Positions 7,076 through 35,245 of a stretch of DNA of 36,923 nucleotides are shown here, in pieces. Under the pieces are notes generated by a model. It saw only the letters and a list, made by a program, of their open reading frames with translations. It was not told where the DNA came from and ran no database searches. The stretch spans positions 1-36,923 of the forward strand of contig NIVC01004728.1 of assembly GCA_002269645.1 (NCBI GenBank). Reading direction: 5' to 3'. Both the position numbers and the translations under genes were made by a program. The stretch is from Macrostomum lignano (taxonomy: Eukaryota). The stretch's first letter is position 1. Each line of letters begins with the position of its first letter.

Positions 7076-7659
7076 GGACCGACCGTTTGGCTATGGGGAA
7101 GCAAAACAGTCGCATAATCACATGATATCGTACTTATTGAAATGTTTTGTCAGATCAGAGCAAAGATTTCCTCCTGTGCACAGCTAAACACCGAGTGCAG
7201 CCAACAGTCTTAGCGAACCGGACGGCTTCATAACAAAACAAGTCTACACGCAGTTCAGTTTTTGTTCCTGTCTTTTGGGTAGTTGAAGCATGCTTTAACT
7301 GCCTTTAATGACAGCGTGCCGCCTCCTGCAGCCCCTCTTTTATTTTTGTAAATTGTGTATTTTACCCTTGTGCGTTCCACTCTTGAATGTACAGTGCGCT
7401 CCCTATTTTGTGCAATTTCATACAAAGCCTTGTCTCGCCTCTCAGTGCAACTAGTTTTTTTCGCAGCCTTACCATTTTTGTTCAAGCTGCTTTGCCAACA
7501 GTTTTTATCGCTTTTAATCGCCTAAACGCCCGGTATCGAGTTAAATGCGTGGACTGCTTCATTATGGCTACTTTTCGCATTAGCGCCACCCTTTCCTGTC
7601 TTCGCCTTCCTGCTTAGGACATTAATAGAGCAGAAACCTGCTTTTTTGTCCTGGTCAGC

Positions 7660-10600
7660 ATGAGCTCTGTTTGGAGAATTTTGCAAACTATTGCAACTTT
7701 TCTGATGCAGGCCTTTGAACTATCTGATAAGGAAGGCTTAGACTCCGAGGTGAGTGATCAAGCTGTCATTGAGGCGGTGACGGCGGACGACGCAGATCTT
7801 ACCTACAGGTACCTACAGCGCAGGCCAGCATTGGTGGGTATATTAGTTCCGATGGACGACAAATTGTTATCCCCACCTCACCTGGCCTGCAGACTGGGCA
7901 GGCGAAATGTGCTAGAGATATTCTTGGCAGCCAAAATTGACATCAACCTGGAAACAAAAACCGGCGAGTCGCTTCTTTACATCGCGTCGCAAAACGGGCA
8001 CCAACATGTTGTTGATCTACTTATTAAGGCTCAAGCCGATGTCAACCTTCAAGAGTTCGAAGGATGCACTCCAATCTACATTGCATCACAGAATGGTCAC
8101 AGTAAAGTTGTTGACCTACTCATCAAAGCTCATGCCGATGTCGATCTTCAAGAGACTGTTCATTTCACCTCACCTCTCTACATTGCATCACAGAATGGTC
8201 ATCTTAAAGTTGTGAACTCACTTATTAAAGCTCAAGCCGATGTGGATATTCAAGACACTGAAGACTGCTCACCGCTCTATATCGCAGCGCACAACGATCA
8301 CCCCGAAGTCGTGCACGCACTAGTTGAAGCGCAAGCCAACGTTGACATTCAGGAAATGGACAAAATGACTCCACTTTACATTGCATCTGAGAATGGTCAT
8401 CGGAAAGTCGTGGAGTTGCTCATCAACGCAAAAGCCAACGTCAATCTCCAAGAGATTGAAGGATGCTCACCCCTGTATATCGCGTCACAAAATGGTCATT
8501 TTCGAATTGTAGACTGGCTTATTCAAGCGAATGCCAATGTCGATGTTTCAAAAGCGGATGGGATGTCACCTATCTTTATTTCATCGCAAAACTGTCATTA
8601 TAGAATAGTCGAATTGCTCATTAAATCCCAAGCTGATGTTAATCTTCAAGAGGTTGATGGATGCTCACCTCTCTACATTGCATCGCAGAATGGTCATCGT
8701 CAAATTGTTGACCTGCTTATCAAAGCTCAAGCCGACGTCAATCTTCAAAGGAACACTGGATCTTCGCCTCTCTACATTGCATCGCAAAACAACCATCTCC
8801 AAGTTGTTGCCCTGCTTATCAAAGCACAAGCGAGAGTCAATCTCCAAAGAAGCACGGGCGAGTCACCTCTTTACATTGCATCTCAGAATGGACACATTCA
8901 AGTGGTTGATGCCCTTATAAAAGCGCAGGCTGATGTCAATCTACAAACAAGAAATGGCTCCACATCTCTTCACATATCGTCTCAAGAAGGTCACTTGACG
9001 GTAGTGAAGGCGCTCATTAGAGCACAGGCTGACGTAAATCGTTCAAAAACCTCGGAGAGACACCCATCAAAATCGCCTCGGAGGCTGGGCACCTCAATGT
9101 GGTAAACATGCTCATAAAAGCGCATGCAGACGTCAATGCTTCAGGATATGCTGGCTCTACGCCTCTCGACATTGCCTCTCAGAATGGCCATCAAGAAGTG
9201 GTGGCCTCACTGATTAAAGCGCAGGCCAATGTAGATCTCCAAAGACACACAGGAGTCACACCACTCTACACAGCCTCACAGAGAGGTCACCCGCAAATAG
9301 TGGACATGCTCATTAAAGCAGGAGCTGACGTTAATCTCCAAGAAAAAGTACAAGGCCCATCACCTCTCTATATTGCGTCACAAAACGGTTGCCAGACGAT
9401 CGTTGACTCGCTCATCAAAGCACAAGCGGACGTGAACCTTCGCGAATTCGATGGGTGCTCCCCTCTCTACATTGCATCACAGAACGGTCATCTGCCTATC
9501 GTAGACTCACTCATCAAAGCCCAAGCCGATGTCAATCTTCAAAGAAGCGATGGAATGTCGCCTCTCGACATTGCATTCCACACCGGGCGCATTCAAGTCG
9601 CGAATTTGCTAGTCAGCGCGTTAGCCGACGTCCATCTGCGACAATCAATGGAAAGTGGCAAATAGAAACTGCAACCAACGCGCCAAAGGCTTCAGATTCC
9701 ATAGACATGCTATTCGACTTAAGCTTGAGCGAAGAAGAGGACGAAACTGTTCCCAGCCTAGAGACGGATTCTGAGTCTGATTGCTCGTGAGATATTGCAA
9801 TATTTTCTTTAATAAAAGCTTTTCAACTCAATTCCTGAAACTTTTGAAACTGTTACGTTTTACTGGGACTTGATAGAATAAAACAGTTTCAAAAATACTT
9901 TAGTAGAAATTTTGAATTTTAGGCCCCTAAATAAAATGAATATGAACACTGATTTACATATTTTAGAACACCTCCAGACGACACAGAGCTAAGCCGGCAA
10001 CTGTACCTGGCACTCTCTCAGGCAGGATTCGTAAACTCGAGAGCTGCGCTGCAGAGTGCAGCAGCCGATGTTTTGCAAGAAATCTTAAGAAAGAGGCTTG
10101 AGAATGAAGACCAGTTTGTAGTCGGCAGCTTCTCCGAAGGCTGGGGCAACAGTCTGAAGACACTCGACGGTCGAACTGACATCGCGTCCGATATTGACGT
10201 GCTAAGTTTGACTCAGGGCCGCATGTACCACCTGAAAGGCATCTGTGAGTGCGCGGAAGAAGAAACATTGCTTCATGAGTACAGTAACGGCCACATTGTG
10301 TGTTCCGGCTTCGGTAAGAGTTTCTCTGAGATTGGTATTTGTTGTGTCTTCTGTTTTTTGTGACAAATCAAAGGAACGAGTCTGGAACTTAAAATGTTAA
10401 ATTAACCAGCCGATCCTCGGCTTTTGTTTTTTTTTTATTTCTGCAAGCCTAGCTTGCTCTCGTTACGCGTAGATTGCTAAGGCGTACGGTGCGCTTGGAA
10501 GCAAATCATTTTGTTTATGGTTCGGCTTGGCTTATACCTTATAGCCACAGCAGTATTGTAATACGAGCGTATTATGCCTGTAGTTCCGGTAATCAACTTT

Positions 10601-12147
10601 TTCGGTATACCTCTTGAATCTAGATAATATTATTGCTAATACAGATTCCATGTAATAATTGACTCACAATTGTTTTTCGCAAATCCATTCCAGCTTCCAA
10701 CCCAGCTCATGCGTATTCCGGAGCCACTCTGAGACCAGCAATTGACGATGTGACGGCTGGCCGGGTCTGCCGGTACCCGCCCATTGCGCCAATCCAGACG
10801 GACAGAGTCTCCAATTCCAACATTCCCTTGTCAATACTACAGGCGCTTCAAAATGACATCAACTCTGCCTCATCTCCCTGCCATGCTGTGCATGCAGCAT
10901 CTCCAGGTCGAGGAGGTCAAGAACTCCGTGTTAGCACTAACTTTCTGGAGAAGAGAATGCAGCGATGTCTCACCACCCTGCAAGGACAGCTGTTTGTCAC
11001 GCTGAAGTATCTAGTGAAAAAGGTTATATGTCACAGTGATGCATTTAACATACAAGGTTTGAAGCCGTACCACGTAAAGACCATCACTTTCCGAATGCTG
11101 GAGGAGACGCCGGTCGACCAGTGGAAGCCAGAGAATCTTGTGCATCTGACGAGGAGATCACTGCAGATGCTGCTTGACAGCGTCCAGAACAGTCGAGCTC
11201 CAGAAAATATTCATGGCCGGATCATGGAGCATTTCTTCCTGAAGGATGCCGCCCTGTACCTCAAAGGCGCAGTTCAGAGAGACGGCAGTATGTACCAGAC
11301 TCTAGGCGACATCGCAAACACACTGGAAACGGTGATTCATCAGCTGCCTCAGCTGTTGCAGCAGTTCAGCCGTGCTCTGAGGCCCGTGAGTGACTCGGGA
11401 ATTTTCTTCTTTCACCCGTTCCAAATCCTACCGGATATGAGAGAGGCTGCCTTGCCGAATTCAGACGTCATCGAGTATTATGAGATCTACGATGTGGTGA
11501 GGGAATGTGTGGCAAAACTCTCCTTCACCAGCTACAGCATTCAATCTCAATATTCTTTAATAAAACTGATTGCCCGGCTGCCAGACTGCGCCTGCTCAGC
11601 ACGGGATGCCTTGAGAACTTTAGCCTGCTTAAAGTTCGGTGACCGAGAAGCTGCTGAGACAACTGTGCTTCGCAGTAGTGGCCACCAGGTGTGCAGGGGC
11701 ATTTCATGGCCAGCTGAAAAGTCGTCTACCGAGGCCTCTGAAGAGTTCGTCTGGCGGCATCTGCGAAGCCGGGACTCCGCGTGGAAGTTCTGCTTTTACT
11801 ATGAAAAGCAACCGGAATTTCGGTTTCTGAAAGGAGATCTGACCGACATCTTTCCGGTTCGCCTGGACAATTACGCTGTGTACTATTACATTAACTTTGA
11901 CGCCCTGCTTTGGGCTCTGCGGTTTGAGCTACTGGCAGACAGGGACTCCAGCGGCCAGGACTGGATTCGAGACGTGGCCGACCGCGAAGACGCAGACGAG
12001 CAGGAGCTTCGAGTGGCCGCCACCTACTCTGCCTGTCGCTGGCGGAGAAATCTTCTGCTGAAGAGACTGGCAGGCTCTGTATCCCCTAGCCAGCAGAATG
12101 TGCTCAAGAAGCAGCAGGTTGAGCGGAAGAGCAGGAAAGGGAAGTAG
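7660..12147 (+). CDS. Ankyrin-repeat (about 18) + Mab-21/cGAS-like receptor (cGLR) fusion, ~1309 aa; exons 7660-9786, 9967-10313, 10694-12147
   Basis: Repeated GxSPLYIASQNGH ankyrin motifs. Phase-compatible GT-AG introns at 9787-9966 and 10314-10693. NTase motif VGSFSEG...SDID in exon 2; Mab-21 motifs CHAV, ELRVSTNFLEK, LKYLVK, YHVKT, HFF in exon 3. AATAAA at 12405-12410. Needs two 1-bp insertions (A-runs at ~9045-9049 and ~9660-9662) to be contiguous. Start codon uncertain because a possible acceptor lies at 7710. Confidence 0.85.
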
Positions 12148-14644: not shown

Positions 14645-14861
14645 GTCATTGCAACAAGTGTGAAACCATAATAATCTTTAGTGTTTTCTTGAATACTAGC
14701 TTACTAAGAAGATGACAAAACTTCTTTGTAAAAGTAGTAAGTACTTATTAATATTCTACTAATAATACCAAGAAGATGATCTTAGTAATCATAATATGAA
14801 TCTTAGCAAGAAACTACAAAGATAACTACGAATTGTGTAATCTTAGTAAGATTAAACAACC

Positions 14862-17074
14862 TGATGTAACCGCCCTTGTCGCCTGTCCGCTCCGTAGAGA
14901 GACGAACGCATGACTAGAGGGGGCAATGACCGTAGGCTGCCTATGACCGGGCAATGACCTGACGGACCTCCAGCACCAGACTGTCCCGCCCACATGATTA
15001 GTAGCTTTGGTAGCGCTTCGTGACCAGAGGGCCAAGGACCCACATGGACCCCACCTGTAGCCAAGGTGCAATAGTTGGTCACTCGGTCATAGTATGACCG
15101 AGTGGCTGCCACCACTCTATGTGACCTGGCGCACCTGGATCTTTCTACCAGACCTCTCGAGGCTAGAGCCCCGCCTGGATTGGTTACCAGGGGATTTAGG
15201 CTAACAGGGGAGACGCATGCAGCCGAGTACAGGGACTCTGCTTGGGGCATGATCGGGAACTCTGGGCTCAATCCTGGAGGATTTCTCAGCAGGGGATCCT
15301 TTGTGGCTGTGAGCGAGGCTGACTTGCGACTTTGATTACTAAGAGTAGTATGAGGCGAACATGTACTGTCTACAGTTTAGATTGCTCAGGGCGAAGGGAC
15401 GCGTTAGCATGGGGTTGCAACCTTCCTACTGCCATTCTGTGCCAAGACTCGCTAATCCCTCTACTGCACGCACACGCGGCCCCGCAGCACGCACTCACAG
15501 GCGGGCTGTGCACGGGGAGAGGCCATTAGCTTACCCAAACTTCCTTATGCTTTGCCACCCCGGGAGAAAGGCTTAGCAAGCCATGAGTGAAATGATGGTG
15601 AAAGATTGAATAATGATGAAGTTAGTTAATAGTTAATAATTAGGCCCTTAGGCAAATAAGCAGGCAATTAGGCGCTTCACTATTGAGTAAAATACAGCAA
15701 AAGATACGGTATCACAATTGGCTCAGCTCTCTAATCAGACAATGGAAAATAGGCAAACCCCGGATAAGCAAAGGCAATTAGAGCACAAATTAGTAGCAGG
15801 AACTTACCGGCAGCTGCACAGAGAGAGAGAGAGACGGAGTGACCGAGGGCGGCTGTAGGCTGCAGTCAGGCAGACGGTGAAGCGGCGATGCGCTGGAGCG
15901 ACGAGGCGCTGATGTAGATCAGGCGATGCTGATGATGCTGGGCGGTATCAGACCGCTGGCCGATAGGCGAGCTCACTTGGGGAGCTAAGGATAACTTGGC
16001 GGTAACAGACCGCGGACCGGCAGGGATTCGTCTTATAGACGAATGGGTCAGAACTCAATCTGACAGCAAGTCCAAAGAAGGACGAGGAGAGGAACAGAGA
16101 TAAACTCAGTTGAGTATTCTCATGCCGAAATCGCTTCCTTTTATAGACCTCACAGCCGCCTCCTCAAGGTCGTTACCATGGCTCCCTCTCTCTGATTGGC
16201 TGCCGGCAGAATGACGTCAGAATGAGTCATGATGAGAAGCATGAGACCGGCATAGCAACATGAGAAATCGGGAAATTGCGCAATCCGGAGGTGGGGTGGG
16301 GGATAATTGGCGCAGCGGGTGGTCGCGAAAGTGTTGCGCAAGCAAACATTGAGAACAATAGGGCTGGGGTCGAGAACAAAGGAATTGGAAATCGGGGATA
16401 ATTGGGGAAAACTGAGAACAATGGAAAAGTAAACATTGGAGAAAAGGTGATAATTAGGTGCGAAAACGAGAACAAAAGAAAGAGAAAATCGGAGAAAATG
16501 TGATAATTGGTGGGGGTCGAGAGAACAAAAGAAGCAAAAACGAGAACAATAGAAGCGGAGGTGGGGTGGGTGTCACATGAGAAATTTGGGAAGGAGAACA
16601 ATAGCGTGAGAAAAGGTTGCGCAAGAGAGGGGGATGAGTCATCGATGAGTCACCGAGGGGGAGAAGGGGTCACACGACTTGCGTCACCGTTTGGGAGTTT
16701 GAGAGGGGATGGGGAGACGGTGAGCACACAAAGTACTGTAAGTAGACACAGGGAAAGAGGGGACAGCGCAGGAAAAGAGTGCAGAGGGAGACAAAAAAAG
16801 GAGGAGGTAGAGAAAGTACAGGAAGAATAGGGCGGGAACAGAAGAGATAGGGTAGAGGGGGAGGTACAGAAAGGGGTAGGGGCTCCGGAAAGGCAGGTGT
16901 GGCGGCAGGAGAGACGGGACCAAGGCAGCAGGAGGTGCAGCAGAGCGGGAGTCTCCAGGCCCGGTCGGAGACCTGGCCGAGTCTCGACAGCTCTGTGCAG
17001 AGGGTGCACGGGATAGGAGGCACTTTCGAAAAAGTTCCCATGCCCTATCCCGCGACCAGAGCGTGGTTACATCA
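14862..17074 (-). repeat. 3' LTR (2213 bp)
   Basis: Direct repeat of 25780-27999; by eye about 3 substitutions and 2-3 small indels. Confidence 0.97.
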
Positions 17075-17090
17075 CACCCCCACTGCCTTT
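17075..17090 (-). other. Polypurine tract
   Basis: AAAGGCAGTGGGGGTG on minus, immediately 5' of the 3' LTR. Confidence 0.75.
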
Positions 17091-17127
17091 TGTGACGGAA
17101 CTGGTTCCGTCATCATCACTGCCCAAC

Positions 17128-20100
17128 ATGGAACCACACAGACGGGAGCGGGATCTCAACCGAACGTGAAATCACAGAATTAACAAACCGCGAGCGGGAA
17201 TGGAAAAAGGCGATAAAATAGAGGGGATAGCAATAAATTCACAAAACGAGATACATAGGTTGGAGTGCAATACAGAATTTCAAAAATTTCAACTGTTGCT
17301 GTGGCTAAAGTGGGAGGGGGGAAACACAGACAGCGCAATAGTAGGGAGAAAAATAGCGAATTGTCAACAATAAATTATCATAATTGGATAGAAGCGCAGC
17401 TGGGAGAGAGGAAACGGGGAAGGGTGAGGGAAGTGGGGAAAAAGAAGGGGGGAAGGGTTGCTAGCACACAGCCAAGGGCAGAGCCTCGGGAGAATGACGA
17501 TTACACAGGGGAAAAATACTAATGCAGCGCAGTAAATTAATAAGCTAATTTCGCCGGGAGTTCAACCGCACGGAGGCCTAGCGTCCTTGAAGGCTCGGAC
17601 CCCGCTTCAGCCAGTCAGAGGGCTTCGGGGCGATCGGTTGTAGGCTGGGAGGCGCCGCGCCGTGCGCTGGCCACTGTATAAAAGGCGCCACTGATAACGG
17701 GAGCCGGCTGCCTGCAACCTACACGGAGTCGCAGTTTCCAACCAAGGCACTCAGCGCGATTTTCCAAACTATACAACTACTCGGTAAGTCCCATCACCAA
17801 CCTGATTTCCTTTCGCCTATACGTTAAACGAAATCTACCCACTCGCCATGCCTTTCGTTTTAAACTGAGCCAATTGCAGTAATAATATATGGCCTTTCTT
17901 ACGGTAAAAGTAGTGAGCAGCCAACACAGAGCCATTTTTAGGAATTTTAGATAATGACACAACAATGACTCGTATATTGGTTATTAAAGTTTAAAAATGA
18001 ATATTATGGAAGAACCGAATATTAATAGGATAATTTCACACACACACACACGACAAACACACAACGCAAGGGGCGGAAAGGCGGGTCGGACCGGCCGGCG
18101 GACGTCGCTCAGCAGGCAGTCGGCATCCTTACTCGAAATGGGCCTCTTGATTTAGCTGGTACGGGCCATATGCCGCCACCTGAGCCATGGCACTTGCCCA
18201 TGCTTCCACATAACGTTGGGCTGCCGCGGCCGTGAGCACCACTCGGTGCCATCGGCTAGGCAAGATGTCGTTGCGCAGCACGCCCCTCAACTGCGGCAGA
18301 GTCGGGATGCCCAGGGCTTGGCATTGGACGACGAAGGCCGCATTCCGTACTTGTTGCAGCCGTGTCAGAGTTGGTGCAGACAGGGGCGGCTGCGCGATTG
18401 CAAAATGCTGCAAAGTGCCACGGGGCACCTCGGCCAGGCCCGCGTAGCCGGGCTCAACGTCGCCCAGGGCCGCCAACACCCACCCACAGCGGCGATTGAA
18501 CCGTTGCGAGAGAGTGGCGCCCAGGCCACTGTGGCAAACGGCGCATAGAGGAGGGGCGCAGAGGCCGGCGCGGAGGCCGCAAGAATGCCGTCGTGGATGA
18601 CGAGAGCCTCTTCCCATTCGGCGCCCTCGCTCAGGAAGCCCCAGAGCAGCCCTGGCAGGTCCGCAGGAAGCATGCCCCAGCGGCTGGCCAAGCTGGCCAG
18701 GCCAATCAATAGCCGGGCTCTCTGGGTTGGCGTCAGTTGTCTAGTCATCTGAGAGGAGGCTGCGCAGCTGATGATCACCTTCTTGTAGACCGGCCGATCG
18801 CAGGTGCTGAAGATTGCTGTGATGGGGGCACAGGACGGCGGCCGGGCTGTCAGGTGTGATGGTTCCTCATCCACAACCTTGCGGAGGAACTTGGCGGCCT
18901 GCCGGACTAGGTCGCTGAGGGCGTATTTGTAGGCGCTCTGGGCCGCTGCCTCGATGTACATTAACAGCGTATTGTCAACCAATCCCAGCAGGGCCGCTTT
19001 TGACAGGATGAGCAGACAGGGCCGGTCCAGGTTGTCGCGAAGTTGGCGCTCTAGAGTCGCATGCCTGTCCTCGGCCTGGAGTGGGCCATGATAGGACTCA
19101 GGCCCGACCCAGTGCACCAGATCCATAGCTGTCGCCGAAGGTTCGCCAGCCACCTGACCCCAATCGACTTCTTCTCTTTGCAGGGCGATGTCCACACTTC
19201 GGCGGCTGTTGGGCAGAACATCACGCAGGCGGCGGGCCGCCTCGCCGAATTCGGCCGCCAGGTCCGAAATGTCCGCGGTGTCGCCCCCAGCATTGGCCGG
19301 GTCGATTGTCTCGTCACCTTCTTCGACCCTGGCGGAGGCCGCCGCTGGCGGCTCGGGGCCGTCCTCCGCCTCTTGGATGGCGTCACGGGGCCGCTTTCGG
19401 CTAACTGGGCTGGCAGGACGCTCAGACGGTAAGCTGGAGCATAGCTGAATTCGATTGATGGTAGGCTTCGTGTCCATGTCAAGCTGGATAGTTCATAGAA
19501 TGCTTCAGCGATTGAAGGACAGAATGATTTCTCTGATTGATGATTTCCAGCTCTGGCAGGCGTGGGTCTTCTTATAGTGCCGGGGCTGGCTTCCCATTGG
19601 TTGAGCACATTGGGAGGCACACCTGCTGCGGCCGGGGTCGCCGTTGGCTTGGGACCGCTCGCTCTAGTCTCCGTGCGCTCTGATTGGCTGGTTCCGCCGC
19701 TTCCTGTTTCCTCACCTGTGAGCAGGGGGCAGACCCGAGACCACCTCCGGTCGCGCCCGCGGCAGATCCGTACTCCAGCCGACAGAGATCGCACTCCCAC
19801 CTCACATGCACACATTCAGATCAGGCACACAAATTAATTTGGTTAATATGAATAGAAGAGGGATTTGGGAGATTAGACTCCGGAGGATAAATGATGATGC
19901 GGCCCAACTCCCTTCGATTTCTTCCTTCAACGCCACGCGCACGCAGTTCTCATCCATGCCTCCGAGACCCTCATAAACTTAACAGCCGAAAGAATTCGAA
20001 AGAGGAATTAATCATTAATTTGACTGCCACCAGTTTGATGTACTATTATAAAAGAGAAAGGGGAACCTACCACCATCTTGGCGCATTACCAAAGAAAAGA

Positions 20101-20888
20101 AAAGGAGGATCAGCCACCATTTTGAGAGAGGTTGCTAGGGAAAACTGCCACCAATTGTACATTAACAGGGAAGAGAAAGAGGGAACCCGTCACCAATTAG
20201 AGTGGATTGCCCGGGGAAACTGCCACTATTTGCCCTTCTACCAGAGGAGAGGAAGACGAAAAACTGCCATCCTTAGAGGTGTATCATTAAAAGAAGGCGG
20301 GGAAGAAGGCTACCACTACTTGATCACCTAGAGCTCAAGGGAAGGAGAGGGAATGAAGAAAGGAAGAAACCCCCAGGAAGGCCACTACCACACGCCATAA
20401 AGTTAAAATCCCCATCTATCTACATCCTAATACCCGGCTAGTTCCCTACTTCTATTTCATCCCTTAAATTCTCATTTTCAGGATTCCGGCCGCTAGTAGC
20501 CGAGCCCATCCTTGAAGAGGAGTCCGACTACGAAGCGCCCGAAGACAGCCATTCAGAGCCGGACGCCCCCTCTGATTCTGGGCCGGCTGCGCCATCTGGT
20601 GACATAGGCGCCGCGGCTCCCGGGCCATGCGACCGCCGGGCCGCCAGCGAACCAGCGTCCGGGGCCGGTTGGCATCCGGTACCACCGCCGTTGTCAGCCC
20701 GAGCGCACGCTCCGCCGCCGGTCGCCGCGGTGACGCCCGTGGCTGCCGCTCCACAGCCCTTGCCAACCCCTGTGGTGGAGACCGACGGCTCCTGGCATTT
20801 GGTCGTGCTGTCGACGGCCCTAATAGCCGGTCTCACAATGCACTGGCTACTGCTCTTGGAGCTATTTCTGCGGCTTCCCAACTGCTGA
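17128..20888 (+). CDS. Candidate spliced antisense gene of the LTR element (exons 17128-17165, 17611-17783, 20482-20888; 205 aa, acidic/Pro-rich with C-terminal hydrophobic segment)
   Basis: ATG in caacATGg context, donors GTGAAA (17166) and GTAAGT (17784), acceptors cttcag (17610) and ttttcag (20481). Phases 2/2 and 1/1 agree and the frame has no stops. The last exon is best supported; the first two are tentative. Confidence 0.4.
18129..19477 (-). CDS. Accessory ORF of unknown function, ~449 aa if one -1 frameshift near 18530 is corrected
   Basis: Overlapping ORFs 19477-18365 and 18617-18129. Acidic disordered N-terminus with RKRPR, then a helical-looking body; no signal peptide or TM helix evident. 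Confidence 0.65.
19571..19690 (-). promoter_or_regulatory. Putative internal promoter for the accessory ORF
   Basis: Minus-strand TATAAG (19576-19571) about 95 nt upstream of the ATG; three CCAAT boxes (19596-19600, 19609-19613, 19683-19687). The 13-mer ctctgattggctg is shared with the LTR promoter (27108-27120). Confidence 0.5.
20024..20323 (-). repeat. Degenerate array of about 8 PBS-like (TGGTGGCAG-type) motifs
   Basis: Variants of ctgccacca(a/t)tt(t)g at ~20024, 20067, 20113, 20145, 20189, 20220, 20264, 20310, spaced 31-46 bp apart. Confidence 0.65.
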
Positions 20889-21473: not shown

Positions 21474-21998
21474 TCAGCGGGGGTCGAATGGGAGACTCAC
21501 ACCTAGCAAGTAAACCTTTTCTGTTCGATAGTCTATGATAGCATGCGTACTGGCTAGAAAAGCACTACCCAGGAGGGAAACTGCTGCTGAATTGCCAACG
21601 ACCAGAAAGAGGATTCTCACCTCTTCTAGCCCAATAACTGCTGTGAGGGTGGCCTGGCCTAGCATCTCTAATTCATTGCCCGTGTAGGACACGGCCTTCA
21701 CACATGGGGGCTCCAGGGCCTCCACACTCTGTCCGGTAATTTTAGTAAAGTCTTTGACTGTTAGCAAAGACAGCGCACTGCCCCCATCTACCAGGAGGCG
21801 GGTGGGAACATTCTCAATTGGCAACTCTACAACAATATCTCTCCCGCGTTGTCCTCTAGCTGGTCTTGGCTGATAGAAATCGGGTACCTTCTCAAATCTA
21901 AACTTCTTGCTGGGCGGACGTGGCAGGTTAAGCTGGGCCCTAGAGAGGGAACGGGGCTGAGTTCGGGCCGGGCCATTCAGCCCTCCCACGGGTTTCCC
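21474..21998 (-). CDS. pro: Retropepsin-like aspartic protease, -1 frame relative to gag
   Basis: LLVDGGSALSLL active-site motif and LLGSAFL C-terminal motif; stop at 21476-21474 directly after the domain. Confidence 0.9.
   Translation of the reverse strand, partial: GKPVGGLNGPARTQPRSLSRAQLNLPRPPSKKFRFEKVPDFYQPRPARGQRGRDIVVELPIENVPTRLLVDGGSALSLLTVKDFTKITGQSVEALEPPCVKAVSYTGNELEMLGQATLTAVIGLEEVRILFLVVGNSAAVSLLGSAFLASTHAIIDYRTEKVYLLGVSLPFDPR
21935..21998 (-). promoter_or_regulatory. -1 programmed ribosomal frameshift signal
   Basis: In-frame heptamer G GGA AAC (21998-21992), 8-nt spacer, stem GGGCTGA/TCAGCCC (21983-21977 with 21960-21954), and loop GGCCC able to pair with downstream GGGCC (possible pseudoknot). 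Confidence 0.8.
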
Positions 21999-23422
21999 GA
22001 ACCCGGGGGCTCTTCAGGCGTGGAAGGAGGAGGCATCAGAGCTTGCGCGCGCAGCTGGGCGAGCCTCTCCTGCCTCTCCCTGGTAGCCTCGTCTAACATA
22101 TCTCTGCCCCACTCCTCTAAATCTTGCCTATGGCGATCAGGTGGCGCACGAAGCTGCAATTGCTGCTGCTGCACACCCGGCGCCGGCGGCGTGGGCGCCT
22201 CCTGAATTGCAAGCGGCGGGGGCTGGGGTTGGCGCCAGTTCCTACTGCTATTAGAGCCGCCCTGCCCCTGCCTCCAGTTCCTGTTGGGAGTGGCGGGGCG
22301 AGGGGGCCTCATCTGCTGGGGCAGCTGGGCAACAGACTCTGCTGTCGCCTTCATAGTTTCATTGAGCTGCACCAGCTGGTTGCGCAGATCCTTTTGCGTT
22401 TGCTCTAGCGCGCCCAACCTCTCTTGCATCTCTGATAGGCCGTCACCGTCCTCCTCCGTCTCGTCAGCTTCCTGGTTCACCATCCTGACCCACTTGCGAG
22501 GGGGCCTGGGTGGCTGCTGAGGTTGCAGACGGACTTCGGTGCGGGACTCAGACCTGGGCGGGCCACTACTGTCCCATTTCCCGGCTAAGTCTGCGGCTTC
22601 TAACAGGGCTTGCTGCTGTTCTAACACCTGCTCAATTGTCTGCCAGCGACGGCTCAACAGATCTTGTCTGACCTGGCGGGGGAGCTTAGCGTGTTCCAAG
22701 TAGGTGTACACGATTTCTTGTTCTCTCTGCTCACCCTGAATCTGAGGAAACATGGCCGTTATCTGAGATCTTATCATAGCAGCAAAAGCACTATGTGATT
22801 GGCCGGGTTTCTGGCTCAGATTCTTCAGCTTATTTCTCTTAGCCAGATCAGTGTTGGCCTCGCCCAACTGCTCTCCTAATCTAGATACGAACTGCTCAAA
22901 GGGCAATTGCCCGTCCAATCCTAAGGCTAAGTTCTGAAATTCACCTGGGAGGTGCGAGATGAGCACCTGCTTCCTAGCCTGATCTCCTACAGTTCTCTCC
23001 GCGTCCAGCTTGTAGATCATTCTCTCTACCCATTGCACAAAACAGTGTTCGCCGGGAGAGAACTTTTCTACGTAGATTTTCGGCCTCTGGGCGTCTTGGC
23101 CCATGTTTAGCTGGTTAAACGCATTGGCTATAGCGGCAACTAAGTCTCCTAGCTGCGGGACTGCCTGAGGAGGATTCTGGGCTGCGTCCGGGGGAGCAGC
23201 GGCGGCTGCTGCGCCACCCTGATTGGGAGCGGGAGCTGCTACTCCTTCATCTGGTTCCTCAACTACTACTGCTTCTGGAGGCTGAGGGACCTGGTTACCA
23301 GCGGCTGCGGCCATTGCGGCTGCGGGGGCGGCAACTGCTGGGGTGTCAGCGGCCGAGGGTGGTTGACCAGGGGCGTCTGCGCACACAGCTTCTACGACCC
23401 TATCTCCACGCGCCCGTGACAT
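21977..23422 (-). CDS. gag: Gag-like protein, 481 aa
   Basis: Intact ORF from ATG 23422; capsid-like region (KFSPGEHCFVQWVERM...LKNLSQKPGQSHSAFAAMIR), coiled-coil and Q/P-rich C-terminus; no CCHC knuckle. Confidence 0.85.
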   Translation of the reverse strand: MSRARGDRVVEAVCADAPGQPPSAADTPAVAAPAAAMAAAAGNQVPQPPEAVVVEEPDEGVAAPAPNQGGAAAAAAPPDAAQNPPQAVPQLGDLVAAIANAFNQLNMGQDAQRPKIYVEKFSPGEHCFVQWVERMIYKLDAERTVGDQARKQVLISHLPGEFQNLALGLDGQLPFEQFVSRLGEQLGEANTDLAKRNKLKNLSQKPGQSHSAFAAMIRSQITAMFPQIQGEQREQEIVYTYLEHAKLPRQVRQDLLSRRWQTIEQVLEQQQALLEAADLAGKWDSSGPPRSESRTEVRLQPQQPPRPPRKWVRMVNQEADETEEDGDGLSEMQERLGALEQTQKDLRNQLVQLNETMKATAESVAQLPQQMRPPRPATPNRNWRQGQGGSNSSRNWRQPQPPPLAIQEAPTPPAPGVQQQQLQLRAPPDRHRQDLEEWGRDMLDEATRERQERLAQLRAQALMPPPSTPEEPPGSGNPWEG

Positions 23423-25758
23423 GTGAATGCCGGATAGCTGGGGGAGTACCCACCACCGGGAAGGAAAAGAAAAGAAAACCGGGGCAACTACAGGTAAAGA
23501 CCGAAAAGTTGATCCGAAACACACACAAACACACAGACACAAAACTCACACACTTGCGGCGTCGAAGAAAACAAATTGAAAAACGGGTGGCTCCACATAA
23601 TTCCATTTAGGCAGTCCTAACGGCTTCACTCGGCAAAGCACACTGACTCAAACTGCGGCTACCACTACCAGTTGTCTATGGCACATCCTGACAGGGAAAA
23701 ATTGGCTATTCAGAGAGACTTGACCTTCATTTTGCGGCCATGCTAGGGAACCCAAATGCCGACCGTAAACGGACTTACGGCACCTGTACAAATTCTCCCT
23801 AGGGTTGCGCGCCGGACCCCATTTCCTTAAGAAAGCTACTACGAAGAAGCGTTGGCGCCTGGACCCAAAAACCCAAGTGGCGGGAGCAATCCCCATGGAG
23901 GTCCTCCCACTTTACTGCCCTTGCACAGCCGGAAAACCGTCGGAGTCCAGTGGGGCTTCCACCTCAGGACTACCAATCTTGTACACGCAGCTTCACAAAA
24001 GGCGGGAATCCAGCTCCCCTACGTCTAGCAGAATCCACAAAAACCAAGACCTCCCCCTTCTGTTCAGAGCGAAGGCGCGCAGCGGGAGTCCAGACTAAAC
24101 TGTCCCCGAAGTTTTCAGGTTAGGCGGATTACAAGCCTGAAACTCTCGCCCGCTTTCCTAGGATAAACAGACCTAAGTGAGTATCTTCCTGAAATGCTTG
24201 CCCCTCCGATACTCCACCTTTGCTGCAGCTCGAAATAGCATACTTGGGACCTTTATCTGATGGCGGAGAAAGTCCTACAGTTGTCAGCCTCTCCACTTTA
24301 CTGTACTTGAACGCCCGGTTCTACCAGGAGACAGCGGTACCTCCATCTAGGTTATTCCAAGTTGCCAGAGACGTCAACCCGTCTTATTGACCTTGCGGGG
24401 CACTGGGGTGGCACTCTATGTACCGGGGCTTTACATTAGGGGACTGCATGCAACCCTGCGTCTAAGCGCTTAGTGGGCTGCAGTGGCCAGAGGGGAAAAG
24501 AGTTGCGCAATAGCGCCTTCCTGGGCCAGGCTGACAAGTCGGGCAGGAGCGCCGTTCTACCGGGTCGGGCTGATTGGCACACCCACCTCCCCTATCAGAC
24601 TGACAGCAGGGGGGAGGAATTACTAAAGGAGGAGAATGCAGCAGGAAACATTACGAGATCACTGGGGCCACCAGACTTCCAGTACACCATTCCAATACTC
24701 ACTGAACTCCACTATCAATAGGATACTATGGGATCTACTATTTCCAGCCACTGCACCAGCCCAAATGCAACCAAAGCAGTTACTACCGGGTCTGCAATAC
24801 AGTGGGGAGAGTCAGCAGACACGTTGGGATCGAATCCCAGCCATGAAGGCACCAGGGGTTACCGCAGAATTCAGGTCCGGGCTGATCGCAGGTATTCCAT
24901 AGGAGGTGACACTTTTTTTAGCCCGAGATTTTTGAGTCACACTGATACCCTACAGAGATACAATCACACCGCTATTCCCATTCCTGCGAGACTTTGGTAT
25001 CCCCCAATGTTTCCAAGGCCATGACTACTGCTTCCCTTACTATGCATATATAGCGAGTTCCCCATAGCCCTTGATAGCTGTTCATTCTAATGGACAAACA
25101 AAACACGCTCCGGTCTCTACGCATTTCTAGGATTAACTGAGCGATCAGGGAGAGCGACTGTTACACTCCCCCGAGTAAAAGAAAGAGGTAGGACAAAGGA
25201 AAGAAATGCTTCGCTTCCAGCTTCCCTGTGCTTGCGTGATGAGGCTTCCGTACCTGGCTGGCTGTCCACCTCAACACTCACACAGTTCTGCTGTAGGCTA
25301 GGCGAGAGAAAGAAAGGGAGGGGAAATAAAGCATATTACCATGAAATAGAAAGTGAGTCCGGAAAATTCACTTTCGCAGTTCTTCACACACTCCGTTACC
25401 AGGTAGCTATTCTGATTGTAATCAAATCCGCTCGTCTACCACTTCACACTTTCTAGCGCTGAAACTGATCGGCTAAATTAATTTTAAATTGAATCAGGGG
25501 CTTTTGGCGAATGAATGAATTTGGAAATTTCGAATGAATTGAACGAATTCGCAGCCCGAAAAATTTGAAAAGTTACATTAATATTTTTGGATTTTGTTGC
25601 CTCACGCCATGGGAGAAGAGAATGACGATTGGCGATTTTTACGATTGGTAGATTTAGACATGGCACTCTTTGCGCTTCGGCCACCATTCTGAGGGATGCC
25701 ACAGGTGCGCTTGTCACATCTAAACCACCAGTCCGAAACTCAGCGCTGTTTGCACCAG

Positions 25759-25776
25759 ATCCCACCGCTGCCACCA
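25759..25776 (-). other. Primer binding site, tRNA-Leu (AAG/TAG type)
   Basis: TGGTGGCAGCGGTGGGAT, 3 nt from the 5' LTR, is the 18-nt complement of the known metazoan tRNA-Leu 3' end ATCCCACCGCTGCCA-CCA. Confidence 0.9.
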
Positions 25777-25779
25777 TTT

Positions 25780-27999
25780 TGATGTAACCGCCCTTGTCGC
25801 CTGTCCGCTCCGTAGAGAGACGAACGCATGGCTAGAGGGGGCAATGACCGTAGGCTGCCTATGACCGGGCAATGACCTGACGGACCTCCAGCACCAGACT
25901 GTCCCGCCCACATGATTAGTAGCTTTGGTAGCGCTTCGTGACCAGAGGGCCAAGGACCCACATGGACCCCACCTGTAGCCAAGGTGCAATAGTTGGTCAC
26001 TCGGTCATAGTATGACCGAGTGGCTGCCACCACTCTATGTGACCTGGCGCACCTGGATCTTTCTACCAGACCTCTCGAGGCTAGAGCCCCGCCTGGATTG
26101 GTTACCAGGGGATTTAGGCTAACAGGGGAGACGCATGCAGCCGAGTACAGGGACTCTGCTTGGGGCATGATCGGGAACTCTGGGCTCAATCCTGGAGGAT
26201 TTCTCAGCAGGGGATCCTTTGTGGCTGTGAGCGAGGCTGACTTGCGACTTTGATTACTAAGAGTAGTATGAGGCGAACATGTACTGTCTACAGTTTAGAT
26301 TGCTCAGGGCGAAGGGACGCGTTAGCATGGGGTTGCAACCTTCCTACTGCCATTCTGTGCCAAGACTCGCTAATCCCTCTACTGCACGCACACGCGGCCC
26401 CGCAGCACGCACTCACAGGCGGGCTTTGCACGGGGAGAGGCCATTAGCTTACCCAAACTTCCTTATGCTTTGCCACCCCGGGAGAAAGGCTTAGCAAGCC
26501 ATGAGTGAAATGATGGTGAAAGATTGAATAATGATGAAGTTAGTTAATAGTTAATAATTAGGCCCTTAGGCAAATAAGCAGGCAATTAGGCGCTTCACTA
26601 TTGAGTAAAATACAGCAAAAGATACGGTATCACAATTGGCTCAGCTCTCTAATCAGACAATGGAAAATAGGCAAACCCCGGATAAGCAAAGGCAATTAGA
26701 GCACAAATTAGTAGCAGGAACTTACCGGCAGCTGCACAGAGAGAGAGAGAGGCGGAGTGACCGAGGGCGGCTGTAGGCTGCAGTCAGGCAGACGGTGAAG
26801 CGGCGATGCGCTGGAGCGACGAGGCGCTGATGTAGATCAGGCGATGCTGATGATGCTGGGCGGTATCAGACCGCTGGCCGATAGGCGAGCTCACTTGGGG
26901 AGCTAAGGATAACTTGGCGGTAACAGACCGCGGACCGGCAGGGATTCGTCTTATAGACGAATGGGTCAGAACTCAATCTGACAGCAAGTCCAAAGAAGGA
27001 CGAGGAGAGGAACAGAGATAAACTCAGTTGAGTATTCTCATGCCGAAATCGCTTCCTTTTATAGACCTCACAGCCGCCTCCTCAAGGTCGTTACCATGGC
27101 TCCCTCTCTCTGATTGGCTGCCGGCAGAATGACGTCAGAATGAGTCATGATGAGAAGCATGAGACCGGCATAGCAACATGAGAAATCGGGAAATTGCGCA
27201 ATCCGGAGGTGGGGTGGGGGATAATTGGCGCAGCGGGTGGTCGCGAAAGTGTTGCGCAAGCAAACATTGAGAACAATAGGGCTGGGGTCGAGAACAAAGG
27301 AATTGGAAATCGGGGATAATTGGGGAAAACTGAGAACAATGGAAAAGTAAACATTGGAGAAAAGGTGATAATTAGGTGCGAAAACGAGAACAAAAGAAAG
27401 AGAAAATCGGAGAAAATGTGATAATTGGTGGGGGTCGAGAGAACAAAAGAAGCAAAAACGAAGAAAGAACAATAGAAGCGGAGGTGGGGTGGGTGTCACA
27501 TGAGAAATTTGGGAAGGAGAACAATAGCGTGAGAAAAGGTTGCGCAAGAGAGGGGGATGAGTCATCGATGAGTCACCGAGGGGGAGAAGGGGTCACACGA
27601 CTTGCGTCACCGTTTGGGAGTTTGAGAGGGGATGGGGAGACGGTGAGCACACAAAGTACTGTAAGTAGACACAGGGAAAGAGGGGACAGCGCAGGAAAAG
27701 AGTGCAGAGGGAGACAAAAAAAGGAGGAGGTAGAGAAAGTACAGGAAGAATAGGGCGGGAACAGAAGAGATAGGGTAGAGGGGGAGGTACAGAAAGGGGT
27801 AGGGGCTCCGGAAAGGCAGGTGTGGCGGCAGGAGAGACGGGACCAAGGCAGCAAGAGAGGTGCAGCAGAGCGGGAGTCTCCAGGCCCGGTCGGAGACCTG
27901 GCCGAGTCTCGACAGCTCTGTGCAGAGGGTGCACGGGATAGGAGGCACTTTCGAAAAAGTTCCCATGCCCTATCCCGCGACCAGAGCGTGGTTACATCA
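25780..27999 (-). repeat. 5' LTR (2220 bp)
   Basis: Adjacent to the PBS; direct repeat of 14862-17074. Confidence 0.97.
27056..27147 (-). promoter_or_regulatory. LTR U3 core promoter (duplicated at 16138-16229)
   Basis: TATAAAAG (27063-27056), CCAAT (27113-27117), CRE TGACGTCA (27130-27137), AP-1 TGAGTCA (27141-27147); two more TGAGTCA at 27558-27564 and 27569-27575. Confidence 0.65.
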
Positions 28000-28047
28000 A
28001 ACCTAAGACTTATCTTGCTAAGATAACTATATGGTGCCCGACCTGGG

Positions 28048-29110: not shown

Positions 29111-29361
29111 CTGAAATTGGCACAGGCTTAGTGTAGAAACCTAACCGCAACGCGTTACAATGTTCCAATGAACCCTATATTTCAACTTTGTGCATCTGTT
29201 CGAACCCTGATTTTTAAGTAACAGCTAGTGAAATTCACAGGCCATGGAACTCAGGGTTCCTGTTATGATGACGTTTTATAGCAGCCTTGCTCTGGCGCTT
29301 CAGTAGCTTATATGTACATATCTGCATCTGCTACGACTGCTCGCTGTTTCTCATTACTCAC

Positions 29362-32300
29362 CCGCCGCTGTCCTCGGGCAACTGGAGGCCTCTTCTCTGC
29401 ATCTCCAGTCTCACATCGGAACTGGCCCGGGATGACAGCTGTGCCAGCAGCCTCCTGCTGCTGTCGTCCCCCAGTCCCGCGCTCTCAGCGATCAGAGTCA
29501 CGCAGACCAGGCAGTCGCGGCAGACCGCCACCATCAGCGGAGTGACACCGTTGGAGTCCGTCACATCGAGACTGGCCCCGTGCTGCTGGAGAAGCTGGAG
29601 GATGTCGGACCTGCCTGCCAAAACCGCGAGATGCGCCGGCGTCCGGCCCTGTCTGTTGGCTTGTTTAGGATCGGCTCGTCCGTCGCTTAGCAGGAACTCG
29701 ACAACGTCTTTGAAGCCGCGGCGGCAGGCGTACATGAGCGCCGTGTTGCCCTGCTGATCCGCTTGGTCGAGCGGCAAGCCCTGTTCGCATGCAAACTTCA
29801 CAATGTTCAGCTGACCTTTCTTGTCAGCGCTAATACTGGCCAAGTGCACAATGTCTCTACCCTTCTCGCTCATGTGGCCAATGTTGCAGTCGTAGCCCTG
29901 GAGCAGCTTCAAGGACTCCAGATGGCCCCTGCTGGCGCTCTCGAGAACCGGCGTGTTCCCGTCACGATCCGCCAAGTCCAAGGGAGCATTATTCTCTCTG
30001 AGAAATCTGAGCACATGGGCATGATTAAAAGTGGCGGCAATTTGAGCCAAACTCCTCTGATGACCATCGCAATGCTCTTTCCAGTCGGTCATTTCAGAGG
30101 TCACTTTTTGGATCAAATGAAAGTTGCCGGATTCCACAGCCCAGCTAATGGTGCCCTTGGCAGTCGGCTCGTCATCAGCTATTAGCTGTGCACCTCGCTT
30201 GACCAGCCAGTCCGCGATGTGCTGGTGACCGCGCTGCACAGCCAGGTGAATGATGCAGTCGGGCAGCGCGGGATCTTCGGCGTTCTGGTGCAGAAAATTG
30301 GCGACCTCCTCGTGCCCGTTAAGCACTGCGAGCTGAAATGGCGTCAGTCCTTGGGCATTCCGCTTCCCAAAACAGTCGGGACAGGTCTCAAGAATGCGCT
30401 TGAGAATGTTTAAGTTTCCATGCATTGCGGCATAGTGAGCGCTGTTGCATTTATTGCTGCAGGTCGCAGCTTCTTTGAAGCCTTTTAGTAGCAGAAGTTT
30501 TAAACACTGAGAGGTTGCCAATGGCTGCGGCAAGTTGCAGGGCGACAGTGTGCCAGAAGGCTCAGCGGCATCTGTTGAGCAGCTATCTGGCAGTGATCGA
30601 ACAGCCACTGAACCAAGCTCAACTTGCTTTTCATCACTGCCACGTGCAGTGGTGTGCGGCCTTCAGAGTTTCTGATGTCCGTGCGGCAGTTCATGGCGAA
30701 CAGCTCGGCGGCCATGTCCAGTCTTCCTGTCATGAGTGCACAGTGGAACGCCGTGTTCCCCTGAGCATCCTGTTTGTCTACAATGTCAGCGAGGAAGGCG
30801 CATCTCGAGTTCTTTCTTAGAGACCGCAACAGTCGAATGTCCCAGGTTCGAACTGCGCAGTGGAGAATGGTTGCTCCCTCGTTGTCAATTTTTTCATCTA
30901 CATGTAAGTCTTTATCCAAAAGAAAGTCCAGATGCTTGATGTCCATGTGCTCAAAAATTTGCTCCATCTTGAGCACACTGGCTACGTGCCCCATGCTCAA
31001 TTGAGCTTCCTTTGCAGCCAGAATATCCATGATCTTCACTGAGTTCAGTGCCGCCGCCAATGAGTAAACTGACAGCCCGTGCTTGTTCTCGACGAGTGCG
31101 TCCGCCCCTCGATCAAGCAGAAGCGCGGCCGCCTTCTCGTTTCCGAATCGAATCGCGCTGAAAAGTGGCGTTTCACCTTCATTGTCTTTTAGGTCAATCA
31201 TTTCTGACAGACCCTTAGAAAGCAGAAATCGAATGATCTCCTTGCTTCCACCGGCAGCCGCAAAGTGAAGCGCGCTTTTGCCATCTTTATTGGTTGCTTT
31301 TATGTCCAGTCCGGGTGCTTTGATCAACTCATCCAGGGCTTTGATTGCGGCGTCTCTTGAAACGAATCCCGGTGGCAGAGCGGGTTTCGCGCTGGAATCC
31401 GGGACGTCATTCCCGTACATTTCGAGTGGGGGCATCAGTTTTTGCTGGTTATTTGATTGCTCCCTGGACTCAGGGTTTTGCAGCTTTGATGTGCATTTCT
31501 TGCCGCAAAGTATAACAAGGGCATTGTTGCCCTCCAGATTGACTTCCGATGCCCTGGCTCCAGCCTTAAGTAGCAGGGGAATCAGTCTTACGTGGCCATT
31601 TTTCACAGCAACAATCAGGGCGTTGTCGCCCAGCGAATTCTTGTAGTTCAGGTGCACTTCACGCTCAATCAGAAACTTCACTATGCCTTCGTTCCCATTG
31701 GCGCACGCGATAGTGAGGCAGTTTTCACGTGATTTTGTTCGACTTCTTAGGGAAACTCGGACATTAGCACTTTGCGTTTTCTTGAGAATTTCCAGACTTC
31801 CGGATTGACACGCCAGGTGAGCAACGGTGCGATCTTCGTGGTCCACTGTTTCATCGATTCTGCCATGGTTGCTCTGAAGGACATTCAGGATGGATTCGCA
31901 GCCAAGCCCAACGCTTAGCATGACAGGCGAAGTTCCAGAGTCATCCAGTGCATTTGGATCGCCAACCCCCTGATCGAAAATAAAGCGAATGGCCGCCCTC
32001 GTTCTTGCCCTGGACGGCATAGTGAGAACAGTTTTCAGTGCACAGTCGGGTAACAGAAAATGAGCACTTAATATTGTGCAGAAGCATCAGGAAACTCGCG
32101 GTCTTGCTTTTTCAGCCGCCAACATAACTGGAACAACGCCGTTCAAATCCGGCTGATTAAGTTTGGCGGCATTGTCGTGAAGAAGCTTTATCAGGCTCAA
32201 AGATCCTGACTGACAGGCGAAGTGAGCCGGCGTCTTGCCATCGTGATCAACTGCATTCACGTCGGCACCTTTCTTAATCAGGAACCTGGCCATGTCAAAC

Positions 32301-34397: not shown

Positions 34398-34485
34398 TTG
34401 GCGGCAATTTTTTTCTTATTGTCTTATTGACCTGTCGTTGTAACCAGAGTTGGGAGCTTTTAATAAATGTACCGATTTTTCAGTG

Positions 34486-35186
34486 TTCTCTCATGACCGC
34501 TTTAATTTCTCTCATGACCGCTTTAATTTCTCTCATGACCGCTTTAATTTCTCTCATGACCGTTTGATTTCTCTCATGACCGCATCAATCTATTTCATAA
34601 CCGCATCAATCTCTCTCATGACAGCATCAATCTCTCTCAGAACCGCATCAATCTATTTCATAACCGCATCAATCTCTCTAATGACAGCATCAATCTCTCT
34701 CAGAACCGCATCAATCTCTCTAATGGCTGCTGCATCAATCTCTCTCATGACAGCATCAATCTCTCTCATGACAGCATCAATCTCTCTCATGACAGCATCA
34801 ATCTCTCTCATGACAGCATCAATCTCTCTCAGAACCGCATCAATCTCTCTCATGACAGCATCAATCTCTCTCATGACAGCATCAATCTCTCTCAGAACCG
34901 CATCAATCTCTCTCATGACAGCATCAATCTCTCTCAGAACCGCATCAATCTCTCTCATGACAGCATCAATCTCTCTCATGACAGCATCAATCTCTTTCAT
35001 GACAGCATCAATCTCTCTCATGACAGCATCAATCTCTCTCAGAACCGCATCAATCTCTCTCATGACAGCATCAATCTCTCTCAGAACCGCATCAATCTCT
35101 CTCATGACAGCATCAATCTCTCTCATGACAGCATCAATCTCTCTCATAGACGCATCAGTCTCTCTCAGCACCACATCAAGCTCTCG
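34486..35186. repeat. 21-bp minisatellite, about 33 units (gacagcatcaatctctctcat)
   Basis: Tandem 21-mers with M/L-type variants and one 24-bp unit. Confidence 0.97.
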
Positions 35187-35245
35187 ATTTTGTAGCTCAT
35201 TCAAACTCTCATCACAAGCATTTCCCTTTCTATATACCTTACAGG
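34653..35245 (-). CDS. Putative exon encoding a heptad (REIDAVM)n coiled coil
   Basis: Acceptor-like ctctatctag at 35246, unique in-frame lead-in (CKVYRKGNACDESLNELQNRELDVVLRETD) grading into about 24 heptads; ends at TAG 34655-34653. Confidence 0.45.

Follow-up and report, generated by a model that had tools for sequence, protein, structure and literature searches.

The retrotransposon described here is a Ty3/gypsy element that encodes only gag and protease, together with a conserved accessory gene. It lies in a window of 36,923 nucleotides (the whole stretch of DNA that was analysed) from the genome of Macrostomum lignano. Elements sharing its LTRs carry the polymerase functions that it lacks, and no protease was detected in them; judged from these sequences, the pair is likely an old two-segment retrotransposon. 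The accessory protein is, on a structural model, likely a catalytically dead SGNH pseudo-esterase.

The element is young, occupies the minus strand of the window and is bounded by two LTRs that are 99.5% identical. The hallmarks of Ty3/gypsy LTR retrotransposons are present, namely TG...CA LTRs, a target site duplication, a primer binding site and a purine tract (Table 1). We take the primer binding site to be of the tRNA-Leu type. Both gag and protease are intact, as in semi-autonomous Gag-Pro elements; the protease matched Pfam PF13975 with an E value of 0.011, too weak to pass the cut-off. Neither ORF inspection nor Pfam detected reverse transcriptase (RT), RNase H or integrase downstream of the protease or elsewhere in the window. 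The RT-RNaseH-integrase order of an autonomous element is thus absent in cis and was found in the partner instead. About 2 kb without a long sense ORF separate the protease from the accessory ORF. The leader (window 23420-25760) comprises 2.3 kb without long ORFs, is common to the partner and is a candidate packaging region. A scan of the window returned no tRNA genes. The LTR contains no canonical heat-shock element, so the element probably does not belong to the HSE families covered in the available part of PMC12801592.

Table 1 Features of the gag-protease element and of the overlapping antisense gene, in window positions.
Feature	Position	Strand	Remarks
5' LTR	25780..27999	-	TGATG...CATCA termini; CCAAT 27117, TATA 27063
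3' LTR	14862..17074	-	99.5% identity to 5' LTR
Target site duplication, 4 bp	5' copy 28000..28003; 3' copy 14858-14861		
Primer binding site	25759..25776	-	same sequence in partner B1 and family 2
gag	21977..23422	-	481 codons counted from first ATG; without CCHC zinc knuckle
Aspartic protease	21474..22013	-	-1 frame behind GGGAAAC slippery-like site; closes with stop
Accessory ORF	18129..19477	-	ATG 19477, stop 18129; 449 codons in unbroken copies
Putative internal promoter	19571..19690	-	CCAAT 19687 (within the 13-mer common to the LTR), CCAAC 19647, CCAAT 19613 and 19600, TATAAG 19576
Purine-rich tract adjoining 3' LTR	17075..17091	-	
Antisense exon 1 (non-coding) and putative promoter	17608..17783	+	CAGCCAGTCAGAG (CCAAT-like) at 17608 and TATAAAAG (TATA) at 17677, both upstream of exon 1; donor 17783
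Antisense exon 2	19184..19428	+	ATG 19188; covers codons about 17-98 of accessory ORF
Antisense exon 3	20482..20888	+	coding; C-terminal hydrophobic segment

With gag as the query, some 55 places proved almost identical, and one distant gag turned up that is fused to pol. The element with this fusion is the partner, B1, which shares its LTR, leader and 3' UTR with the gag-protease element at 97-99% (the LTRs at 99%) and differs in its interior, where a diverged gag is in frame with RT, RNase H and integrase. The partner pol begins where the protease of the gag-protease element stops. A protease profile matched none of 15 partner stretches from 12 copies, one of which (C1114) is cut by the contig end before the junction, and it matched all five controls, although two of these resemble sequences on which the profile was trained. 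A fully autonomous helper was thus not found: all 12 scanned copies of LTR-sharing partners, the one cut short included, lack a protease. Among the next-best matches, a protease motif was present in each of the four relatives inspected. The partner clade accounts for 12 places among the best 104 scored of 4361 candidates, and no protease-bearing member of this clade occurs among those 104 scored matches.

The same division recurs in a second family, to which we were led by P0004, a distant homologue of the accessory protein, and which encodes a 388-residue homologue at the same position (E = 1e-11). Here too, a gag-protease element is accompanied by a pol partner without protease; the two are 96-98% identical across 4.5 kb of LTR plus leader and across 3.7-4 kb at the 3' end. 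Families 1 and 2 show no DNA similarity, LTRs included, and their gags and pols are 42% and 54% identical, respectively. Termini, target site duplication length (4 bp) and primer binding site agree in all four elements of both pairs. A zinc knuckle is absent from all four Gags of the pairs, whereas five of six relatives have one. The simplest reading of these comparisons is that one old pol was likely split where the protease ends and that its two halves have co-evolved from then on.

The gag-protease element could instead be an ordinary semi-autonomous parasite, its partner being self-sufficient or served by unrelated families and the shared LTRs reflecting recent swapping. There are known cases of Gag-Pro-only elements served by a fully autonomous helper, as the cited part of PMC9744471 describes for wheat Sabrina_SA, and many protease-bearing gypsy families in this genome could serve either element. 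However, a parasite would hardly account for a complementary split in two families as diverged as these, nor does it sit well with a scored set in which the partner clade has no protease-bearing member; we consider it unlikely. A mutualistic segmented element, whose two members complement each other's missing functions and which exists in two deeply diverged families, is the reading that we regard as probable.

Additional features were recorded around these elements and their relatives. In L108, L121 and L123, the primer binding site lies directly behind the 3' LTR, giving tandem elements that share an LTR. Many contigs of the genome (G000) contain short matches, about 80% identical, to protease residues 2-72 only, which suggests an older deleted derivative family. 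Some protease-bearing gypsy relatives carry J-domain-like extra ORFs (L062:5896-7458, L063:2219-3931, L103:6594-7559 and L105:6460-7416; labels by eye), some with a TatD-like part. An unrelated family of extra ORFs behind pol has a low-complexity N-terminus and a helical-looking C-terminus (L068:6785-7654, L104:6552-7475 and L071:3102-4229). In the window, the element is flanked by intronless ankyrin-repeat genes and a Mab-21-like ORF (7618-9790, 10663-12147 and 29358-34415; Pfam Mab-21_C, E = 9e-4), several of which are frameshifted. A 21-bp tandem array upstream of an ankyrin ORF (window 34498-35290) encodes a heptad coiled-coil-like repeat.

The accessory ORF is a real, conserved gene of the element. 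The original prediction of a protein of about 449 residues agrees with the unbroken frame of 449-450 codons in 16 of 30 fetched loci; the window copy is itself frameshifted and exits the shared frame near residue 321 (about 18,517). Searching its own genome with the ORF gave 97 matches on 37 contigs, numbers that are not copy numbers because the assembly is redundant. Conservation among copies, on which the prediction had been made to depend, was evident and was accompanied by purifying selection: dN/dS was 0.107 over 449 codons against the diverged copy C100, 0.07 for residues 100-449, and 0.10-0.14 for the family-2 ORF. Distant homologues outside the M. lignano genome were P0004 (30% identical over the full length), P0001 and P0003; P0002 was discarded as a repeat-driven match.

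All own-genome homologues whose flanks were examined lie in element sequence, a point that the original prediction had proposed to check. Own-genome searches, in which the best candidates were scored and introns ignored, revealed no similar host paralogue outside elements, and hhalign could not align a host GDSL gene, which shows no sequence likeness to the accessory protein. The suggestion of a captured host gene accordingly fits best as an ancient capture. Sequence-profile searches (Pfam, PDB sequences, hhalign) gave no match for the accessory protein, and a word-indexed protein search with three queries, the ESM Atlas, and metagenome and viral contigs were likewise empty. The protein was correctly described as lacking signal or transmembrane features: its best 19-residue hydropathy is 1.7, within the predicted soluble helical domain, and neither hydropathy nor the model indicates the signal peptide and transmembrane anchor of an env protein. 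No known pol or env domain was matched in these searches. Its 'env position' is accurate in that the ORF lies directly before the 3' LTR, and means just 'last ORF' because the element has no pol.

Twenty gag-protease places have no match to the accessory ORF. Sixteen of these have lost the ORF together with its promoter by internal deletion, 13 of them with a shared breakpoint near 17,985 (some being duplicate insertions); of the other four, three run into a contig end and the fourth is interrupted. Since deletion copies have spread without it, the accessory ORF is dispensable in cis.

The accessory ORF is far more diverged than its flanks, which makes counter-defence the main rival explanation. 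On this view, the protein would act in trans to block small-RNA silencing by the host or some other restriction factor, either as a pseudo-enzyme decoy or by binding RNA. The C100 copy is a mosaic whose dS is 1.33 in the accessory ORF versus 0.15 in gag and 0.02 in the protease, and family 2 shows a like mosaic (dS 0.7-1.8), as if old alleles had been swapped and kept, as in arms-race genes. Dispensability in cis would suit such a role, as would the unrelated extra ORFs that other families of the genome carry at the same position. Yet dN/dS is low throughout (0.03-0.3), pairwise windows show no positive selection, and the analyses point to no host target. We judge counter-defence to be rather unlikely.

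The core of the accessory protein was modelled with AlphaFold2 from a 12-row alignment of related sequences (pLDDT 73, pTM 0.74). In the model, a low-confidence, acidic and proline-rich N-terminus is followed by a helical domain (about residues 144-284) and an SGNH-like domain (about 286-439). In a structural search, residues 286-439 matched SGNH/GDSL hydrolases, with OatA at a Z score of 9.4 (rmsd 4.0, 150 aligned residues), a value that modestly exceeds the typical chance best of 7-8. Z scores of at least 8 were reached by 12 of 48,161 chains, and a second search agrees. Apart from three entries with uninformative titles, ranks 1-31 are filled by esterases, lipases, acetyltransferases or OSK; the first unrelated fold appears at Z 6.9, next to the OSK domain of Oskar at 7.0. 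Foldseek gave no hit with E ≤ 0.001 and assigned TesA a probability of 0.90, and its viral structure library yielded nothing significant for the model. The C-terminal half of the protein is predicted to adopt the SGNH/GDSL alpha/beta hydrolase fold, with a moderate Z, from one model built on 12 related rows, and no sequence method backs the assignment. An earlier model (5 rows, pLDDT 46), which gave helical matches only (best Z 7.8), was superseded by the 12-row model, and motif-based readings as a 2H-phosphoesterase or a methyltransferase were set aside after the fold search.

The catalytic residues of the SGNH class appear to be lost. The Block I serine (GDS) appears to be missing, with HDG in its place, Ser10 of TesA corresponding to Gly297, which is invariant in all 12 rows. 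The Block III asparagine (GxND) appears to be missing as well: Asn73 corresponds to Val341 in a register set by motif only, and ALGDVE or AVGEAP occupies the matching strand end. In Block V, the Asp-x-x-His motif is missing, with Asp154 and His157 corresponding to His411 and Val414 in a range-end register, and DxxH was found in none of the alignment rows that reach this block. The catalytic register was derived from aligned range ends and the TesA numbering given in the cited part of PMC10792757, and is not a residue-level superposition. As Ser, Asn, Asp and His all appear replaced, a pseudo-esterase is the reading of the accessory protein that we prefer. Copies of its SGNH domain in the M. 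lignano genome have a pI of 5.6-7.1 and lack a basic character, in contrast to the ZfL2-1 surface with its positive charge; this disfavours a simple charge-based mechanism.

The original prediction had placed a TATA box and three CCAAT boxes before the ORF, one of them sharing a 13-mer with the LTR promoter, and all of these were located. The 13-mer, CAGCCAATCAGAG, occurs in both LTR promoters and is the sole 13-mer of 19480-19850 found elsewhere in the window; a comparable match to the LTR arose in 34 of 2000 dinucleotide shuffles. In the diverged copies C100 and C201, identity of the 5' UTR drops to about 55%, and the TATA box, CCAAT-19687, CCAAT-19600 and CCAAC 19647 are unchanged, whereas CCAAT-19613 is changed. 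Because 49 of 218 five-mers are conserved in C201, this motif conservation lends only modest support to selection on the promoter-like set. Judged from these motifs, the accessory ORF would be transcribed from a putative internal promoter. Three copies (C616, at L045:4455-6578, C3922 and C3989) bear a 2.1-kb integrase-only insertion in the promoter, presumably Ginger/GIN-like, with H2C2 and rve, no RT, and a 4-bp duplication; its insertion point corresponds to window 19580-19583, between the CCAAT boxes and TATA.

The promoter had also prompted the idea of a nuclear transactivator that is made early and activates both the LTR and itself, like foamy-virus Tas. The conserved promoter motifs, the CCAAT 13-mer common to the LTR and the acidic, low-confidence N-terminus of the model are compatible with this. 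The NLS-like RKRPR is indeed present at residues 27-31, and its RKR is retained in C100 and C201; however, that conservation is ambiguous because the stretch overlaps an antisense exon, and the basic cluster, found in two of four proteins tested, has no counterpart in P0004 or the family-2 homologue. The protein is likely not Tas-like, because the basic motif is not family-conserved, and its predicted fold, SGNH hydrolase-like with an N-terminal helical domain, likewise argues against a Tas/Bet-like factor. The shared 13-mer is incompletely kept in diverged copies, and we take it to be an ordinary NF-Y-type site and count it against a transactivator, which seems highly unlikely overall.

A spliced three-exon antisense gene overlaps the accessory ORF. 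The joint 19428->20482 occurred in four of seven RNA-like runs (three studies) and 17783->19184 in two of the seven (two studies), and one run used a minor donor near 20130. The RNA-like status of the runs is the program's guess, and the contigs are unstranded; five of the seven leave the leader at 23,300-25,500 uncovered. All spliced joints seen are antisense, on the plus strand with canonical GT..AG; their short sides are just 26-28 letters, and their sites match no genomic deletion seen. No joints occurred in the single run with even coverage of the entire element, which probably represents DNA. The exon-1 stretch also occurs in partner B1, and the exon 2 donor and ATG context are retained in C100 and C201. 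The joined frame encodes 215 residues and stays open in the window copy as well as in 7 of 14 close copies, with dN/dS of 0.20 and 0.33 in exon 3. In family 2, a non-homologous antisense ORF lies in the same place (dN 0.33 versus dS 1.75). Intron 2 contains degenerate repeats of about 78 bp (window 20020-20380), and one such unit is absent in some copies (intron of 978 versus 1053 nt).

In both families, purifying selection acts on each of the two overlapping genes, and in family 1 each has its own CCAAT/TATA-like promoter. The sense ORF and the antisense membrane-anchored protein might form a toxin-antidote or regulator pair that guards the element from loss. Such a pair is hard to reconcile with deletion copies that spread despite losing the sense ORF and the antisense start exon; moreover, the antisense proteins of the two families are not recognisably homologous and no toxic fold was found. 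We give this explanation very little chance.

We lean, if only slightly, towards a dead SGNH esterase that acts in trans as an RNA or membrane adaptor in assembly, in an element that replicates with its protease-less partner. The shared LTR would express the RNAs of both partners. The gag-protease element would supply Gag and, via the frameshift, protease, and the partner would contribute a Gag-like anchor bearing RT and integrase; in particles of mixed composition, the protease may then mature the partner Gag-Pol polyprotein by trans-cleavage. The accessory protein would be expressed from a promoter of its own and serve in trans as an adaptor that binds RNA or membrane, a role for which Oskar, with its dead SGNH domain, and the ZfL2-1 esterase are the analogues. 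Because none of the four Gags has a zinc knuckle, there would be room for a binding helper. A bolder version, which we think unlikely, is a true two-segment genome, coupled through the common LTRs, in which an Oskar-like dead esterase that binds RNA replaces the lost zinc-knuckle nucleocapsid and gathers both RNAs in one particle, controlled by the overlapping spliced antisense membrane-protein gene. One degraded copy counts against the adaptor explanation because a homologue there sits behind a complete-type pol: in L082:5485-8000 and L071:1-8100 (C100), the decayed remains of a gypsy from a different family, comprising gag, pol and a Gln-rich ORF, directly precede a family-2-like accessory ORF (58-66%) and 3' region, either as a chimera or as nested remains.

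If the segmented reading is true, a mutualistic retroelement of this kind would be a tractable model for the origin of multipartite viral genomes, as known helper-parasite retrotransposon pairs include one fully autonomous member. The pol-less half is invisible to RT-anchored annotation, by which the pair would be missed. If the structural model is right, the accessory protein would add a case of non-catalytic reuse of the SGNH fold, parallel to Oskar, and it suggests RNA, lipid and particle-association roles to probe for the ORF3 class.

We found no literature report of a protease-less pol partner or a bipartite pair; a 2020 classification may name these families. Bipartite tyrosine-recombinase elements and LTR-swapping partners in soybean exist, and a precedent for the bipartite pair elsewhere in the literature is possible. 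The available portions of PMC12801592, PMC8775202 and PMC13524379 contain no protease-less pol partner. The closest comparison in the cited parts of PMC9744471 and PMC11302176 is with wheat, where RLG_Sabrina_SA (Gag-Pro only) goes with RLG_Wilma and RLG_Quinta with RLG_Cereba. These pairs likewise consist of a Gag or Gag-Pro element co-evolving with a pol-encoding partner, but the wheat partners are fully autonomous, whereas the M. lignano partner has no protease and dependence would be mutual; unlike in wheat, LTR and leader are common to both partners at 97-99%.

For the 3' gene, the Penv promoter of Oikopleura Tor and the foamy-virus internal promoter drive expression independently of the LTR, as far as the cited part of PMC4402516 describes. 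The accessory ORF resembles these cases, although its promoter is putative and the Tor gene is a true env. Conserved antisense aORFs lie between pol and the 3' LTR in the plant elements Grande, RIRE2 and Retand; in the cited part of PMC7264820 they are not described as spliced across a sense accessory gene, as the antisense gene is here.

SGNH domains also have counterparts in the parts of the literature cited here. Vesta LTR retrotransposons of bdelloid rotifers carry a GDSL/SGNH ORF3, and the GDSL derivatives of Athena-L are catalytically dead (PMC5408684). Vesta thus resembles the present element in that a gypsy-type element carries, ahead of its 3' LTR, an extra ORF with the SGNH fold; its ORF3 keeps the catalytic residues and lies behind a full pol, whereas here the residues appear lost and there is no pol. 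Vesta also differs in lacking the 140-residue helical domain before the fold, the promoter-like motif set and the overlapping antisense gene, as far as that source describes it. The ORF1p esterase of ZfL2-1/CR1/RTEX, likewise an SGNH domain borne by a retrotransposon, binds liposomes independently of its active site (PMC3905857). It belongs to a non-LTR ORF1, is catalytically active with a positively charged surface, and is not among the structural matches listed for our model. The OSK domain of Drosophila Oskar is an SGNH fold without the serine nucleophile that binds RNA (PMC10792757, PMC7250577). OSK (5a4a) aligned with our model over 143 residues (Z 7.0, rmsd 3.9), no closer than active esterases. 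The likeness is of an SGNH fold minus its nucleophile reused for binding, where binding by the accessory protein is by analogy, and the difference is that Oskar is a host germ-plasm gene with a LOTUS domain and no sequence likeness to the accessory protein. Within the sources as cited, there is a precedent for each single trait: Gag-Pro-only coding, an internal promoter, an antisense ORF and an SGNH ORF3.
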